Translations under genes and position numbers: made by a program
Source: a virus
Lineage: Duplodnaviria; Caudoviricetes
Length of the DNA: 25,606 nt
Reading direction: 5' to 3' (one strand)
IMG/VR virus record: IMGVR_UViG_3300005804_000114
Coordinates: 1 to 25,606 of that record
Notes under the pieces: generated by a model
The model's database searches: none
The model's input: only the letters and a program-made list of their open reading frames with translations
What the model was told of the DNA's origin: nothing
Shown here: one piece after another, positions 12,595 to 23,566 of the stretch
Position numbering within the stretch: the first letter of the stretch is position 1
How the letters are laid out: each line of letters opens with the position of its first letter

Positions 12595-12794
12595 ACGCTC
12601 AAAAAGCCTTAGAATACAGAGATCCCCAAAAGGTAGTGTTTGAACCAACCGAAGGCATGGGTAAAATGCCAAAATGTCCGAGGTGCAAAGCGGTATTCAT
12701 AACCAAGTATGGGTTGACAAGCTTCTGCGGGAACTGCGGTCAAAGACTCAACTGGCGGAGCTTGCTGGATGATTTGAGGGAGGATGAAGCGTGA
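12591..12794 (+). CDS. Zn-ribbon phage protein
   Basis: CPRC...FCGNCGQRLNW. Confidence 0.7.
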   Translation: MNAQKALEYRDPQKVVFEPTEGMGKMPKCPRCKAVFITKYGLTSFCGNCGQRLNWRSLLDDLREDEA

Positions 12795-13681
12795 ACATAT
12801 GCCTGATAGACGCTGACAGTAAAATTCCAAATCTTGCTCTCATGAAAATATCGGCATGGCATAAAGCACAAGGCGATCAGGTTTCCTGGTACAATGCGAT
12901 GTTTCATGTCAAAGAGAATAAACCAGACAAGATTTATGCCAGCAAGGTTTTTACCTTCACCGAAGATTATCATTACTTTCCGCATGACGTTGAAGTTGTT
13001 AAGGGCGGGACCGGGTACGACATTAAAAAGACTTTACCTGATGAAATTGAAACCATATGTCCGGACTATTCGCTTTACGACATGGATCACTCACTCGGAT
13101 TTCTTACGAGAGGTTGCCCCAATAAATGCTCATGGTGCTTTGTACCGAAGAAAGAAGGAAATATCAGACCGGCGCAGGACATTGAAGAGTTCTTGAGACA
13201 CGATAAGGCTATCTTGGCAGACAATAACGTCCTCGCTCACGATTGGGGAATTAAGCAGATTGAGAAGATTATCAAACTCAAAGTGAAGGTTGATTTTAAC
13301 CAAGGACTTGACGCGAGACTGATTAACGATTCCACGGCGAAACTTCTCTCTAAGGTTAGATGGCTTAATCCCATCAGGTTAGCGTGTGACACCGAAGGCC
13401 AAATGAAGCATGTTCAGAAGGCCGTGGAGCTTCTTAGGTGGTACAATGCAACGCCGGCAAGGTATTCCTGTTATGTTCTTCTAAAACCGGGGAAAATTGA
13501 CGATTGCTTGAAAAGAGTAAAGTTCCTAAAGGGGATCTGCATTGACCCATTCGTTCAACCTTTTCAGCCGCCAAAAGGGAGAATAATCCCGCAGGATGAA
13601 AAGGATTTGGCAAGGTATTGTGACATGAAAGCAACTTTTAAAAGCGTTTGGTGGGAAGATTACAAAAAGACTGGAGCGTGA
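12791..13681 (+). CDS. Phage radical SAM protein
   Basis: PNLALMKISAWHK N-terminus; TRGCPNKCSWC (CxxxCxxC); DNN and DFNQGLDARL motifs. Confidence 0.88.
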   Translation: MNICLIDADSKIPNLALMKISAWHKAQGDQVSWYNAMFHVKENKPDKIYASKVFTFTEDYHYFPHDVEVVKGGTGYDIKKTLPDEIETICPDYSLYDMDHSLGFLTRGCPNKCSWCFVPKKEGNIRPAQDIEEFLRHDKAILADNNVLAHDWGIKQIEKIIKLKVKVDFNQGLDARLINDSTAKLLSKVRWLNPIRLACDTEGQMKHVQKAVELLRWYNATPARYSCYVLLKPGKIDDCLKRVKFLKGICIDPFVQPFQPPKGRIIPQDEKDLARYCDMKATFKSVWWEDYKKTGA

Positions 13682-13685
13682 GAAT

Positions 13686-14219
13686 GTGAAAAAGTTAATA
13701 ACTCAAACAATTATAATCCTAATAATTGGATTCTCATTCGGCCTAAACGTAGCCCAAGCCCAAACAATAGAACTTCAGAACAAAGTCATAGACGGTCAGA
13801 TAAAAGACCTTTACCAGCAGATGAACGCACTGAACGAGGAAGTAAAAAGGCTTAAGGAGCCAGCTGGCATAACCGAGGAAGACCTTGAACTACTCTCTAA
13901 GCTCATCTACACAGAAGCTAGGGGAGAATCGTTTGAGGGGCAAGTTGCGGTGGCGGCAGTCGTTTTGAACCGGCTAAAAAGCCAAGATTTTCCCAAGAGC
14001 ATCCGGGAAGTAATTTACTCTGAGAACCAGTTTAATGGGGTCAAGAATCTTAAGTATGTTACTCCGACCGAGAAGAATATTCGGGCAGCCAAACGAGCAT
14101 TGATGGGTTTTGACCCTACAAATGGGGCGGTGTTTTACTGGACGAAGAACACGAAAGGAAAATGGTTCAGATCCCGCGAGGTTAAACAGGTTATCGGGAA
14201 CCATCAGTTCTGTAGTTGA
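13686..14219 (+). CDS. Secreted cell-wall hydrolase (Hydrolase_2, SleB/CwlJ-like)
   Basis: Signal peptide ending AQA; coiled coil; EARGE, VAAVVLNR, DPTNGAVFY and IGNHQF motifs. Confidence 0.9.
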   Translation: MKKLITQTIIILIIGFSFGLNVAQAQTIELQNKVIDGQIKDLYQQMNALNEEVKRLKEPAGITEEDLELLSKLIYTEARGESFEGQVAVAAVVLNRLKSQDFPKSIREVIYSENQFNGVKNLKYVTPTEKNIRAAKRALMGFDPTNGAVFYWTKNTKGKWFRSREVKQVIGNHQFCS

Positions 14220-14343
14220 TGTTCTTCGTTAGAATCAAACCACAGCGACGAGAAGGCACCTGGAATTAATTAGGATAACCGATTAATAGATTCGGATTAA
14301 TTGGAAGTATGAAACGATTCTAGGGCAAATATGGAGGTGTGAA

Positions 14344-15432
14344 ATGAAAAACGAATTCAAAAGCAAAGTATATACAGATCGACCGGCGTACGCAGATTTC
14401 GATGCGCCGAGAAAATTTGAGGCGATAAAAAGTATAATTGCAAAAAGGCTGATCGAGCACCCGAACGCCATCTGCTCTTACTCTGGCGGAAGTGATAGCG
14501 ATATCATATTGCACCTTATTGAGTCAGTTCGTGAAATATTTAATCTCCCGCCTATTCAATATTGCTTTTTTAACACCGGTCTTGAAATGAAAGCGATAAA
14601 ACGTCACATTCGCGATATGGAGGAACTATATGGTATTACAATCTCTGAGCACCGGCCAAAAAAAAGCATAGTGCGGGCCACGCGAGAGTACGGACAGCCG
14701 TTTGTTTCAAAGATCATGTCAGCCGGGCTTGAGGGAATTCAGAAGAAAAACATTCCGCTATCGATTGCCGAAGAATACGCAGAAGCAGAAGACAAGGCGG
14801 CAAAACGCCTAGAACTTAAAAAGCGATATCCGGGGTGCGAAACAACGATTAACTTTCTATGCTGCTGCAACTCCAAAGGAGAACCACGGCCCGATATTCA
14901 GTTGGTCATAAATTCATCAAAATATATGCTGGACTTCATCAGAGAGAATCCAATCCCCTTTAAGGTAAGCAACAAATGCTGTGATTACTGCAAAAAACAA
15001 GTAGCGCATAACGTGCAAAAATCCTTTGAAATGGTCATCACCGGAGAACGCCGTGACGAGGGTGGAGTGAGGTCTGTCCCTCGCAAGGATAACACGTCAA
15101 TGTGCTTCTCGGAAGCAGCTGACGGCAAGTACAGGCTCCGACCACTATATTATGTGTCCGACGCGGATAAACAATGGTACAAAGACTACTACAAAATCCG
15201 TTATTCAGATGCCTATGAGGTGTACGGATTAACACGCACAGGGTGTTGCGGATGCTCCATATCGGCAAAAGCGGTAGAGGATTTGGAAAAGATACGACCA
15301 TTTGAGCCGAATTTAGTAAAGGCCGCGTGGAACGTGTTTGGTGACAGCTATAGATACCGCCAACAGTACAACGAGTATAAAGCGCGTAGGCGAAATGGAA
15401 ATCAACCGAGCATGTTCGATTTGGAGGTGTGA
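14344..15432 (+). CDS. PAPS-reductase-family (PP-loop) protein
   Basis: SYSGGSDS, FNTGLE, CC...KK, TGERRDEG and RTGCCGC motifs. Confidence 0.88.
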   Translation: MKNEFKSKVYTDRPAYADFDAPRKFEAIKSIIAKRLIEHPNAICSYSGGSDSDIILHLIESVREIFNLPPIQYCFFNTGLEMKAIKRHIRDMEELYGITISEHRPKKSIVRATREYGQPFVSKIMSAGLEGIQKKNIPLSIAEEYAEAEDKAAKRLELKKRYPGCETTINFLCCCNSKGEPRPDIQLVINSSKYMLDFIRENPIPFKVSNKCCDYCKKQVAHNVQKSFEMVITGERRDEGGVRSVPRKDNTSMCFSEAADGKYRLRPLYYVSDADKQWYKDYYKIRYSDAYEVYGLTRTGCCGCSISAKAVEDLEKIRPFEPNLVKAAWNVFGDSYRYRQQYNEYKARRRNGNQPSMFDLEV

Positions 15433-15436
15433 GAGA

Positions 15437-15655
15437 TTGGAGTTATACAGATTTAAACCAAACGTATTTATGAGTCCTTATGAGCTTAGAGGAATGATAG
15501 AAGCCACTAAGGATGATTATGAACAAGTAAAACTAGCCTACTGCCCGAAATACCAAGACCAATATTACGGCTGCCCGTCATGGAACAATGGCGAAGGGTC
15601 GGAAGAATGTTGTCAGTGCCGGATGGGGGTTTGGGAGGTGGTCAATAATGCCTGA
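15437..15655 (+). CDS. Small Cys-rich hypothetical protein
   Basis: TTG start after GGAGGTG; overlaps the next start. Confidence 0.55.
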   Translation: MELYRFKPNVFMSPYELRGMIEATKDDYEQVKLAYCPKYQDQYYGCPSWNNGEGSEECCQCRMGVWEVVNNA

Positions 15656-16804
15656 GCTTACTCATTTTAGTTTGTTCTCAGGTATTTGACCGGCGGGATA
15701 GATTTGGCAGCCGAATGGGCAGGATTTGAAACTGTCGGACAATGCGAATTTGCCGACTACCCCACAAAAGTCTTAGAAAAACACTGGCCAGACGTACCAA
15801 GATGGAGGGATATAAGGAATGTTACAGCCGAGTCTATTCGATCAAGAGGAATACGAGAAATTACCTTGTTATCAGGGGGCTTCCCCTGTCAACCTCATTC
15901 CGTTGCTGGAAAACATAAAGGCTCTGATGATGAGCGTAACCTCTGGCCGGAATTCTGCAGAGTCATTAGCGAAACTTCTCCCAAATGGGTTTTGGGCGAA
16001 AACGTACCAGGGATATACACAAGCGACAATAGACGGTTCTTTGGAAGAGTTCTCAATGATTTGGCCTCGCTGGGGTACTATGTTGGATGGGCAACTTACG
16101 GAGCTATCCACGTTGGCGCTAAGCATAGAAGAGAAAGAGTCTTTATTGTGGCATACGCCAAGGGCAGTAATGATAGAAGAATCACCAGAGAATTTCAGAA
16201 AAAGAATGAACAAAAAAAGGCCAAACGACAGGAAGAACGGATTTCCGAATTTGGCGGTACAGGTGAAATTCTGGCCAACTCCAACAGCTCAAGACTTCAA
16301 GCGCAGGGGACCGAACAGCAAACAGCAAGGTTTGAGCAATGCTGTATTATGGCCAACACCGAAGGCATCACTAAGAGGGGATTGTCCATCAGAGAGGGTA
16401 AGGAGATCACCGGATTTAGCAGCAGCAGTAAATATATATCCAACTCCCCAAGCAAGAGATTACAGGACGGGAGAGGGACACCGATGGCAAACACCGGAGA
16501 AAAGAAGCAGGAATTTAAACGATGCGATTGCCTATCAAGAGGGATACAAATTACTTCCTACACCCACGGCTCAGGATGCGAAAAACGCGACCCTACCACA
16601 AAGCCAGAAGAACAGGGACAGCATTCCAGGACATTTATTGAGGGAAGGAAATACTGGGAGTTTGAACCCGACGTGGGTAGAGTGGCTAATGGGGTTCCCT
16701 CAAGGGTGGACAGACTTAAATGTTTAGGAAATGCAGTAGTACCACAACAGGTATTTCCAATCTTAAAAACTATTGCACAGATAGAGAGGTGTTCAAATGC
16801 TTAA
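15648..16804 (+). CDS. dcm: C5 cytosine DNA methyltransferase, catalytic (alpha) chain, interrupted in motif I at 15687-15691
   Basis: MPELTHFSLFSGI* (15648-15689) then GGIDLA in the frame of ORF 15686-16804; motifs IV GGFPCQ, VI ENV, VIII HRRERVF and X LGNAVV. Confidence 0.85.
15819..16727 (+). CDS. Nested alternative-frame (beta) chain of the methyltransferase with PTP repeat modules and motif IX
   Basis: 302-aa open frame inside dcm; own SD GGAGG at 15804-15808; ends LNPTWVEWLMGFPQGWT. Confidence 0.8.
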   Translation: MLQPSLFDQEEYEKLPCYQGASPVNLIPLLENIKALMMSVTSGRNSAESLAKLLPNGFWAKTYQGYTQATIDGSLEEFSMIWPRWGTMLDGQLTELSTLALSIEEKESLLWHTPRAVMIEESPENFRKRMNKKRPNDRKNGFPNLAVQVKFWPTPTAQDFKRRGPNSKQQGLSNAVLWPTPKASLRGDCPSERVRRSPDLAAAVNIYPTPQARDYRTGEGHRWQTPEKRSRNLNDAIAYQEGYKLLPTPTAQDAKNATLPQSQKNRDSIPGHLLREGNTGSLNPTWVEWLMGFPQGWTDLNV

Positions 16805-22071: not shown

Positions 22072-22881
22072 ATGGATATAAGAGAGCGGGCCAAGATTCT
22101 ATTTGAACAAGGGGAAAGGCTTATTGATATTTCCGATAAGCTTAAAATAAATTACAACACTATTAAACAATGGTGTAACCGAGGTAAATGGAAAAAACCA
22201 AAGAAGGTTACAAAAAAAGTTACACCCAAAATAAAGAATGTTCCCTTGGCAAAAAACGATAATAAATCCCTTATTGAAGATAATGGCCTCACTGAAAAGC
22301 AAAGGCTTTTTTGTTTATATTGGGTTAATAACCGAAATGCAACTCAGTCATATTTAAAGGCTTACGGCTGCAACTATGCGGTAGCGGCAGTCGAGGGGCA
22401 CCGAAACCTAACGAAACCTAAAATTAAAGATGAAATCAATAGACTGCGAGAATTAAAAAAAGAATCTATTATGATAGACGAAAACGACATTATAGAAAAA
22501 TATATGCGAATAGCCTTTTCAGATTTAACTGATTTTATCGAGGTAAAGACTGAACAAGTCCCAATGATGTCAAGTGACGGCCCTATAATGATACCAGACC
22601 CAGATACGGGAGAACTAAAACATATGATGCAAACCGTCAATATGCTTACCCTTAAAACAAGCGATCAAATTGATGGAGCGTTGATTAGCGAAATAAGACA
22701 AGGCAAACAGGGAGTAAGTATTAAACTAGAAGACCGGCAAAAGGCGTTAAAGTGGCTTGCAGATTTCTTCGGGATGAATCCGGAGCATAAACACCGGGTA
22801 GAATATGATGCTAAAAAGTTACAGCTTGAACAGGAAAGATTACAACATACAATCAAGATAGATGAGGTGAAGGTGTTTTAA
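22072..22881 (+). CDS. terS: Terminase small subunit-like protein (N-terminal HTH + Terminase_2)
   Basis: LTEKQRLFCLYW...NATQSYLKAYG...RNLTKPKI and IKLEDRQKALKWL motifs. Confidence 0.8.
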   Translation: MDIRERAKILFEQGERLIDISDKLKINYNTIKQWCNRGKWKKPKKVTKKVTPKIKNVPLAKNDNKSLIEDNGLTEKQRLFCLYWVNNRNATQSYLKAYGCNYAVAAVEGHRNLTKPKIKDEINRLRELKKESIMIDENDIIEKYMRIAFSDLTDFIEVKTEQVPMMSSDGPIMIPDPDTGELKHMMQTVNMLTLKTSDQIDGALISEIRQGKQGVSIKLEDRQKALKWLADFFGMNPEHKHRVEYDAKKLQLEQERLQHTIKIDEVKVF

Positions 22882-22882
22882 G

Positions 22883-23566
22883 ATGGCGCGTCATGCTAAG
22901 GTACAAACATTTTATGCAAGTAAAGAATGGGTTTCCTTCAGGTTAGGGTTAATAGCCGAGAGGGGAAATAGATGCGAACGATGCAAACAAATAATATCAA
23001 GACCAATAGACGTTATCGGGCATCACAAAATAGAACTTACTCCAGAAAATGTGAAAGATGTAATAATAAGCCTTAATCCTGAATTAGTTGAACTAATCTG
23101 TTTTGATTGCCACCAAAAAGAGCATAACCGATTTGGATATCAGACAGAGAAAAAAGTCTACATAGTTTATGGTCCGCCGCTGTCAGGTAAGACAAGCTTT
23201 GTGCAATCGCAAATGAGGCGGGGAGATATTGTTATTGACATGGACCGTCTTTACGAGGCAATAACAATGTTGCCGGCATTTGATAAACCAGATAATCTCC
23301 TTGGTAATGTGAGGGGCATATACAATTTACTGCTCGATAACATAAAAACCAGATATGGAAAATGGAACAATGCTTGGATTATCGGAACATATCCCGATAA
23401 ATATAAGCGGGAAAAATTAGCAGAGGACCTAGGGGCTGAACTGATCTTCTGCGAGGTAAGCAAGGATGAATGCTTAAGGCGGTTGTCCTTAGATGAAGAC
23501 CGTAAGTATCGGCAAGATGAATGGTGTGGATATGTCAATAAGTGGTTTGAGCATTATATTGCCTAG
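22883..23566 (+). CDS. Packaging-associated HNH endonuclease fused to a P-loop domain
   Basis: CERC...HH...LICFDCHQKEH followed by VYGPPLSGKT. Confidence 0.85.
   Translation: MARHAKVQTFYASKEWVSFRLGLIAERGNRCERCKQIISRPIDVIGHHKIELTPENVKDVIISLNPELVELICFDCHQKEHNRFGYQTEKKVYIVYGPPLSGKTSFVQSQMRRGDIVIDMDRLYEAITMLPAFDKPDNLLGNVRGIYNLLLDNIKTRYGKWNNAWIIGTYPDKYKREKLAEDLGAELIFCEVSKDECLRRLSLDEDRKYRQDEWCGYVNKWFEHYIA

Follow-up and report, generated by a model that had tools for sequence, protein, structure and literature searches.

Very few genes in nature have been shown to use programmed bypassing; in the parts of the literature available to us, they are gene 60 of phage T4, inserts in yeast mitochondria, and the gene for the terminase of Streptomyces phage phiHau3. 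In the MobA/gene 60 system, as described in the accessible text of a preprint (bioRxiv 10.1101/2022.08.31.505936), an HNH element sits in a conserved gene and provides a respelled copy of its codons, and the gap opens, behind the take-off codon, with a stop or rare codon and ends at the landing codon. According to the same text, MobA elements can lose the nuclease yet keep the cassette, and in all gene 60 homologues the landing codon is read by the same tRNA. Pairing of the exiting mRNA has been proposed, on circumstantial evidence, to drive T4 gene 60 bypass (bioRxiv 10.1101/2024.12.09.627546, available sections). Low-level hops of +5 and +6 over a stop were obtained in E. coli by means of synthetic constructs (Weiss et al. 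1987, described in the available part of PMC5009743), and, by that part of the 2016 review, in-frame stop hops in nature were not then known. For the phiHau3 terminase, the bypass junction peptide was identified by mass spectrometry in E. coli using a UAA variant (PMC10732093, in the portion accessible).

Phage methyltransferases have a literature of their own on mobile elements and divided chains. The methylases of actinophages are reported to host homing elements, namely an intein, a LAGLIDADG element, and the hidden HNH of ShiLan (available text of PMC9957025 and PMC11855218), and M.EcoHK31I has an alpha chain with motifs I to VIII and X and a beta chain nested in another frame (available text of PMC2836561). 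A gap in motif I is not described in the accessible text of PMC10732093, PMC3711429, PMC4190342, PMC9957025, or PMC11855218, and the words "bypass" and "Gudmit" are both absent from the accessible text of the last two. Our wider search of the literature returned no report of such a gap, with the proviso that tables in PMC3711429 or in the MobA preprint could hold one.

The DNA analyzed here, called the window throughout, is the whole 25,606-nucleotide stretch of the IMG/VR record IMGVR_UViG_3300005804_000114 and is part of a temperate phage with integrase, repressor, replication, and terminase genes. Its C5 methyltransferase gene carries a surplus TGACC (15687-15691) that splits the FSGI|GG of motif I. 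The features that concern us are the following.

15437..15655, + strand: small gene that found no family match in family searches; its stop (15653-15655) lies inside the 5' hairpin arm, and it occupies the position of the nuclease gene of relatives.
15634..15640, + strand: Shine-Dalgarno sequence GGAGGTG of the replacement 5' end, seen in the sequence.
15647..15656, + strand: 5' arm of a predicted hairpin, AATGCCTGAG, covering the start codon and the stop of the upstream gene (fold against shuffles).
15648..15689, + strand: ORF1, from ATG 15648, MPELTHFSLFSGI-stop, with the first strand and the F-S-G-I of motif I (from the sequence).
15677..15686, + strand: 3' arm of the predicted hairpin, CTCAGGTATT, made of the F-S-G-I codons up to the take-off codon (fold against shuffles).
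15684..15686, + strand: ATT (Ile), proposed take-off codon (sequence and family statistics).
15687..15691, + strand: 5-nt gap TGACC, with the stop TGA at 15687-15689 and the proposed landing triplet ACC at 15689-15691 (from the sequence).
15692..16804, + strand: ORF2, C5 cytosine methyltransferase alpha chain from the GG of motif I to motif X (matches to PF00145 and M.HhaI).
15819..16727, + strand: nested +1-frame ORF of 302 aa, in the frame of ORF1 and with a purine-rich leader of its own (PHROG 1008 "DNA methyltransferase," E value of 3e-35).

The TGA is followed by CC and then by GGC at 15692, and motif I of the enzyme is whole only when the gap is skipped; reading that resumes at +5 finds 370 open codons. 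In the +1 frame a stop follows after 13 codons, in agreement with the earlier claim that a prfB-like +1 shift would fail here, while the -1 frame reads LTGG... from TTG 15686 and both the -1 and the +2 frames are open into ORF2. The original prediction had described GGAGGTG, ATG 15648, MPELTHFSLFSGI, the TGA, the surplus TGACC, and GGC 15692 exactly as they stand in the sequence. It was right about the gap but contained neither the hairpin formed by 15647-15656 and 15677-15686 nor the homing-nuclease origin.

ORF2 matches PF00145 with an E value of 1e-43 and M.HhaI with an E value of 5e-16, and motifs I, IV (PC), VI (ENV), VIII, and X are all present in the gene. The nested ORF, which carries WPTP repeats, is likely a beta chain of the M.EcoHK31I type. 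A string found by regular expression, which we take to be like motif IX, occurs in the +1 frame of 26 out of 60 loci with the gap and 13 out of 21 without it. The nested chain may complete the enzyme, as in M.EcoHK31I, for which the available text describes no gap in motif I; the nested layout occurs with and without the gap and is not the new feature.

The motif I gap is real and conserved. The original prediction had proposed the raw reads as a check for assembly error; in run X1, a single contig crosses the stretch at a depth of 127 with zero variant letters or indels, which speaks for the gap but is a weak check, as X1 may be the window's own source and contigs drop rare variants. The strong evidence is recurrence: neither assembly error nor chance accounts for the gap because the same codon is gapped in 112 distinct contexts, two cultured GenBank phages included, and the suggested search for recurrence in divergent phages was thereby answered positively. 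A target-site duplication or transposon scar was also considered and rejected, neither flank being repeated by the gap.

In a set of 80 homologues from IMG/VR, 3 are gapped at this codon and 76 are intact, all 76 with an exact FxGIGG. The remaining homologue (L032, near position 2985) is gap-less and has a 1-nt deletion just 5' of motif I, probably a mutation or sequencing error. An open-length scan, in which gaps of 1 to 26 nt were allowed behind the anchor TTCTC in 31 of the 64 parts of IMG/VR, listed 119 loci, 39 of which were methyltransferases by local HMM; these had gaps of 4, 5, and 6 nt in 13 cases each, unlike the chance matches, in which many other gap lengths occurred. All scans pooled, there were 566 pattern matches, 268 of them HMM confirmed, with repeats across scans counted. 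Unconfirmed matches, 91 of which came from dedicated scans, were dropped, and a few of them resemble real gene starts cut by a contig end or an interruption. The 268 confirmed matches represent 112 distinct contexts. At 85% identity these form 81 clusters, which yield 87 cluster-by-junction representatives, and the junctions are of 41 distinct kinds; the representatives are related, and counts over the 87 are therefore not counts of independent events. The patterns demanded F-x-G and G-G-(L/I/F/M)-D, which confines the sample to such spellings of motif I. A looser contig scan over 8 of the 64 parts yielded no methyltransferase among 121 matches, two scans of sampled genomes matched in 0 and 1 of 351 (the sole match, L672, is not a methyltransferase), and a plasmid scan gave zero gap matches. 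The two cultured phages are the Gordonia phages Gudmit (MN813685.1) and Lton (OP297548.1), both with TAT-TGAAC-GGC downstream of an HNH gene.

The anatomy of the gap shows a pattern that any explanation has to accommodate. Its length is 5 nt in 66 of the 87 representatives, 4 nt in 14, and 6 nt in 7; it is found in all three frames and varies even between sister loci, such as L007 with TAAC and L001 with TGACC (88% identity). The first triplet is TGA in 36, TAG in 18, TAA in 11, and a sense codon in 22, so that, as in MobA, the take-off codon is followed directly by a stop, both in the window and across the family (65 of 87). Of the first triplets that begin with T, 65 of 71 are stops and none is TGG. 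The 22 sense-led gaps come from GC-richer loci, and the resemblance to the rare codons of MobA is weak in these, with a relative synonymous codon usage below 1 in 15 of 22 on noisy counts. In three loci with a 5-nt sense-led gap (L554, L450, and L541), the un-hopped frame runs for 245 to 341 codons into the motif of the beta chain, and one start could yield the alpha chain with a hop and an extended beta chain without one.

The take-off codon specifies Ile in 79 representatives, Tyr in 5, and Val in 3, and the last triplet of the gap tracks it. In 83 of 87 this triplet lies within one mismatch of the take-off codon family, a test that 16 of the 64 triplets would pass; in shifted registers, the same test is passed by 27 of 87 (one base back), 0 of 87 (one base forward), and 1 of 87 (two bases back). 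A middle A in the landing triplet accompanies Tyr take-off in 5/5 cases against 2/82 for the others, and GT accompanies Val take-off in 3/3 against 19/84. The expectation of a matched landing codon in relatives thus holds at the level of one mismatch but not as full cognacy, since 11 landing triplets are fully cognate, 72 have one mismatch, and 4 have two. The window's pair, ATT/ACC, belongs with the commonest landing triplet (ACC, 27 cases), mismatched at the middle position; in T4 gene 60, by contrast, landing is not mostly near cognate.

Short slips or readthrough could in principle dispense with a hop: a +1 shift would serve the 4-nt gaps, a -1 or +2 shift the 5-nt gaps, and readthrough the 6-nt gaps, leaving one or two extra residues in the S-adenosylmethionine (SAM) loop. 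The -1 and +2 frames that stay open into ORF2 in the window would allow this, as would the four of seven 6-nt gaps that are stop-free and in frame. Three mechanisms would, however, be needed at one conserved site that has no slippery sequence, the extra residues sit badly with the exact FxGIGG of all 76 intact homologues, and the tracking between last triplet and take-off codon would go unexplained, which makes slips decidedly unlikely in our estimation. The stop-free in-frame 6-nt gaps are those of L382, L571, L612, and L578 (CAAACC, CAACTC, and TTAGTC), where plain reading would give two extra SAM-loop residues. The other three 6-nt gaps are stop led (TAGGTT, TAGGTG, and TAGGTC) and would be natural in-frame stop hops.

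The -1 shift, which the original prediction had offered together with re-initiation at TTG as its second option, is unable to serve 4- or 6-nt gaps. Re-initiation itself, either at TTG 15686 after termination or at a start inside the Shine-Dalgarno sequence, would produce a split or N-terminally altered alpha chain. The TTG does overlap the stop in the window, some start triplet lies in the downstream frame in 38 of 66 five-nt gaps, and the family is already two-chain. The GenBank starts of Gudmit 58 (L668:871) and Lton 60 (L673:1473) are of this kind, each in the downstream frame at an upstream codon inside the Shine-Dalgarno sequence. Nevertheless, a Shine-Dalgarno-led start in the downstream frame was found in none of the 80 representatives with a 4- or 5-nt gap, and the TTG depends on the combination of TGA and a 5-nt gap, with TAA or TAG gaps giving none, so the option is not conserved. 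The F-x-G of motif I belongs to the SAM-binding loop of C5 methyltransferases, and the product of re-initiation would be without it, as are the annotated Gudmit 58 and Lton 60 proteins, in which gene callers have missed motif I. We regard re-initiation as the least probable of the readings weighed here.

In our view, the best reading is a hairpin-assisted ribosomal hop over the gap, and the comparative sequence evidence makes it fairly probable. The stop-hop from ATT to near-cognate ACC, the first option of the original prediction, fits best because the gap occurs in all three frames, begins with any of the stops, and ends in a triplet that follows the take-off codon; a hop is favored because a single event has to account for gaps of +4, +5, and +6, for the preference for a stop in the frame of ORF1, and for a last triplet that depends on which tRNA sits in the P site. 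The ribosome would make MPELTHFSLFSGI and stall while its P site is occupied by ATT and its A site by UGA. The arm at the start codon could then zip onto the exiting F-S-G-I codons, pulling ATT off the peptidyl-tRNA-Ile and barring its return, after which the peptidyl-tRNA-Ile would form weak pairs with ACC, 5 nt further along, and decoding would restart at GGC. A barred return would let a near-cognate landing suffice. Such a hop is probably of low efficiency, and several features stand against it: a fully cognate landing triplet occurs in only 11 of 87, the peptide made before take-off is short, 22 of 87 gaps are sense led with codons that are weakly rare, the 3' arm would presumably still be inside the ribosome at take-off, and a peptidyl-tRNA of 13 residues may drop off.

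The hairpin itself is a family trait. In the window its z scores against shuffles are -2.3 and -3.1, while in Gudmit and Lton it is weak or unremarkable (-0.4 and +0.5). A duplex of -10 kcal/mol or stronger between the upstream 50 nt and the F-x-G-x codons is predicted in 82 of 87 representatives against 1 of 21 gap-less clusters, and the mean pairing probability at arm positions 2 to 9 is 0.8 to 0.94 in the 87 against 0.26 to 0.41 in the 21 controls. When the arm of each locus is compared with foreign arms, the own arm pairs better in 79 of 87 representatives and in 10 of 21 controls. The predicted arm covaries, with compensatory changes present: the wobble base of the Ser codon is paired in 71 of 73 contexts with a fixable register, and all four Watson-Crick pairs are used. 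The arm starts at the start codon in most loci; a Shine-Dalgarno-led ORF1 of 12 to 16 codons is present in 55 of 87, and the pairing includes the start codon in 42 of these 55. Judged by best register, 21 of 87 form a second group, in which this arm is used in a different frame and the loop is 27 nt long, and selection therefore works on the nucleotides. When the arm was made a requirement in a scan of IMG/VR that allowed gaps of 0 to 12 nt, all 33 matches were gapped (9 distinct contexts) and none was intact. The window fold had hinted that the upstream arm served as template for the gap by quasi-palindrome repair, or that the gap had co-adapted to it, an idea that we rejected: among the 87, the own gap did better in 40 cases but worse in 46.

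A hairpin followed by U also resembles a terminator, and this bears on the possibility that the gap is removed or skipped in RNA, by hairpin-driven realignment of RNA polymerase or by a micro-splice, so that the ribosome reads an intact mRNA. Removal at the RNA level is frame independent, as are the data; in register 0 or -1 it keeps the residue in 87 of 87 and 84 of 87 representatives, and ACC or ACT could pair with an RNA end AUU through U-G wobbles. Yet such removal needs no stop in the ORF1 frame, and 65 of the 87 have one; there is no repeat of a length to re-form the RNA-DNA hybrid, and the TAC-to-AAT and ATC-to-ACT junctions would probably leave a 3'-terminal mismatch. Rfam introns gave no matches in 9 loci at the gathering score or in the window at an E value of 0.1. 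All told, we consider removal in RNA unlikely. A group I or group II intron was rejected, there being no Rfam catalytic core in these searches and only 5 surplus bases in the window. A promoter and terminator scan returned nothing on the + strand.

Where the cassette came from can be stated with more assurance than how it is decoded. From sequence comparisons, we are highly confident that the gap cassette derives from an element with a predicted nuclease of the HNH type. Upstream sequence of 500 nt or more is present in 71 representatives; of these, 25 have an HNH match in PHROGs, and a nuclease gene within 1 kb upstream (by PHROG or leave-self-out tblastn) adjoins the cassette in 37, as in MobA, against 0 of 21 control clusters and 0 of 83 gap-less loci. 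In 30 of 71, the gene start is duplicated some 100 to 900 nt upstream, and the nuclease gene often follows this stranded original; one of the 30 is probably due to chance, like the single match among 21 controls. In 28 pairs of old and new starts (56 to 85% nucleotide identity), the old copy is hairpin-free and mostly continuous into GG without a gap, and the new copy pairs more strongly in 28 of 28; the codons displaced have thus received a respelled replacement, again as in MobA. In Lton, the match to the gap-less CheeseTouch runs as far as the old ATG (86%) and picks up once more at the resume point (94%). Between the two, nuclease and cassette fill about 490 nt where CheeseTouch has about 25 nt; this comparison maps the ends of the element. 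The element would insert at the FSGIGG codons of the methyltransferase, stranding the old start upstream, and would bring a respelled start whose gap would ruin the target of the nuclease itself. That immunity is the purpose of the cassette is a claim we hold with less confidence than its origin.

The commonest passenger type matches PHROG 8446 "HNH," and its structural model has a pLDDT of 82; for its C-terminal domain, the four covering matches are beta-beta-alpha-Me (HNH-type) nucleases with middling Z scores of 4.8 to 5.2. Pfam HNH_3 fits 4 of the 8 passengers tried, a profile search of the passenger against the sequences of solved structures gave helix-turn-helix matches only, and in the ESM Atlas the passenger falls mostly into unnamed clusters, with HNH appearing only under 0.9. 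The best two matches to this passenger among 50,697 GenBank phages are Gudmit and Lton. At least two nuclease types that share an HTH-KRNQ module serve the same cassette, which suggests nuclease swapping, and four representatives (L001:2302-2877, L105:2611-3219, L554:73-489, and L566) carry it in antisense orientation. A quick tree built from 110 catalytic domains requires 15 changes between gap and gap-less labels; strong branches make at least 6 of these unavoidable, a pattern that a mobile 5' module or repeated loss would produce.

In four loci, a stub is kept about 100 nt upstream and the nuclease is wholly or mostly deleted, and the cassette stands without a nuclease in 34 of 71 representatives, the window among them. 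Within 1 kb upstream of the window's cassette there is no HNH gene or stub, and because both are absent, the window appears to be an end state in which nuclease gene and stub have been lost and the cassette has been kept. The Shine-Dalgarno sequence at 15634..15640 would then probably be the left edge of what remains of the element; a comparable arrangement of Shine-Dalgarno sequence, spacer, ATG, and CCN is found in L001, L007, L105, L113, and L106.

Homing elements are able to spread at a cost, and conceivably a selfish nuclease element simply kills the methyltransferase, with the cassette as baggage, in line with the inactivation that was the third option of the original prediction. The alpha frame does end early in 4 of the 87 representatives, and dN/dS is higher for gapped pairs (0.12 over the 30 codons past the gap and ahead of the beta overlap, in 41 disjoint pairs) than for gap-less pairs (0.045, in 10 pairs). 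A value of 0.12 nevertheless contradicts inactivation, as do the conserved replacement start and hairpin. Both PC and ENV are retained in 74 of the 87 alpha frames, although HMM filtering biases dN/dS and frame counts toward intact genes. The element moreover brings a new Shine-Dalgarno sequence, a start, and a copy of HxSLFSGI; the hairpin covaries; and the cassette outlives the nuclease in the 34 representatives mentioned above. Between the ATG and the end of the gap, Gudmit and Lton differ by a single nucleotide, while just downstream their synonymous sites have diverged. Gene killing is accordingly, to our mind, highly unlikely.

Read as a hop, the cassette would work like the MobA/gene 60 element, but it falls outside that group on four counts: its take-off and landing codons are mostly not matched, its gap has another length, its target gene is a different one, and it has no peptide signal. 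The target is motif I of a C5 methyltransferase and not the topoisomerase of T4 gene 60, and the gap has 4 to 6 nt against 20 to 50 nt in the available descriptions of T4 gene 60 and MobA. Only 12 to 16 (or about 23 to 27) codons precede it, compared with about 45 in gene 60, which leaves no room for a 46-residue peptide signal. The stem-loop of T4, as described in the accessible text, takes in the take-off codon, whereas the predicted covarying stem here lies 5' and ends at that codon. The zipping model parallels the exiting-mRNA proposal for T4 gene 60 (bioRxiv 10.1101/2024.12.09.627546, available sections). As in the synthetic E. coli hops, to judge from the part of the account available, a P-site tRNA would leave its codon, cross a stop, and re-pair 5 to 6 nt on. 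The phiHau3 terminase resembles the window in having a short coding gap in a phage gene but has a UUA hungry codon and a different gene, and the accessible text of PMC10732093 mentions no nuclease cassette. Methylase genes are a target of homing nucleases in actinophages also, where the inserts described in the available text are spliced or read through in frame, unlike the gap cassette.

We see an even chance that these loci constitute a minimal class of bypass, in which a 5' hairpin closing on the take-off codon would eject the peptidyl-tRNA and drive a hop of 4 to 6 nt in any frame, with a near-cognate landing and no nascent-peptide signal. Such a module of about 50 nt, spread over phages of several bacterial groups, may let homing nucleases invade codons that cannot be respelled, and would give a selfish nuclease another route into a conserved motif without splicing. 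If the class is true, in-frame stop hops would for the first time be known from nature, and the model in which pairing of the exiting mRNA pushes the ribosome would gain its smallest test. The 50-nt cassette, with 41 natural junction variants and hairpin-less controls, would show whether pairing of the exiting mRNA alone drives forward movement and how little anticodon pairing a landing requires, and it is carried by two cultured phages, Gudmit and Lton, whose host is used in teaching laboratories.

Three further observations concern neighboring genes and relatives. In Gordonia phage Hans (MZ322009.1; L670:817-1639), an intact FSGYGG start is unannotated and a LAGLIDADG gene follows at 1184-1639. 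Just upstream of the cassette in the window, the replication module contains radical SAM, cell-wall hydrolase-like, and PAPS reductase-family genes (12791-15432). At 22072-23566, two consecutive genes match terminase small subunit families, the second with an N-terminal HNH match.
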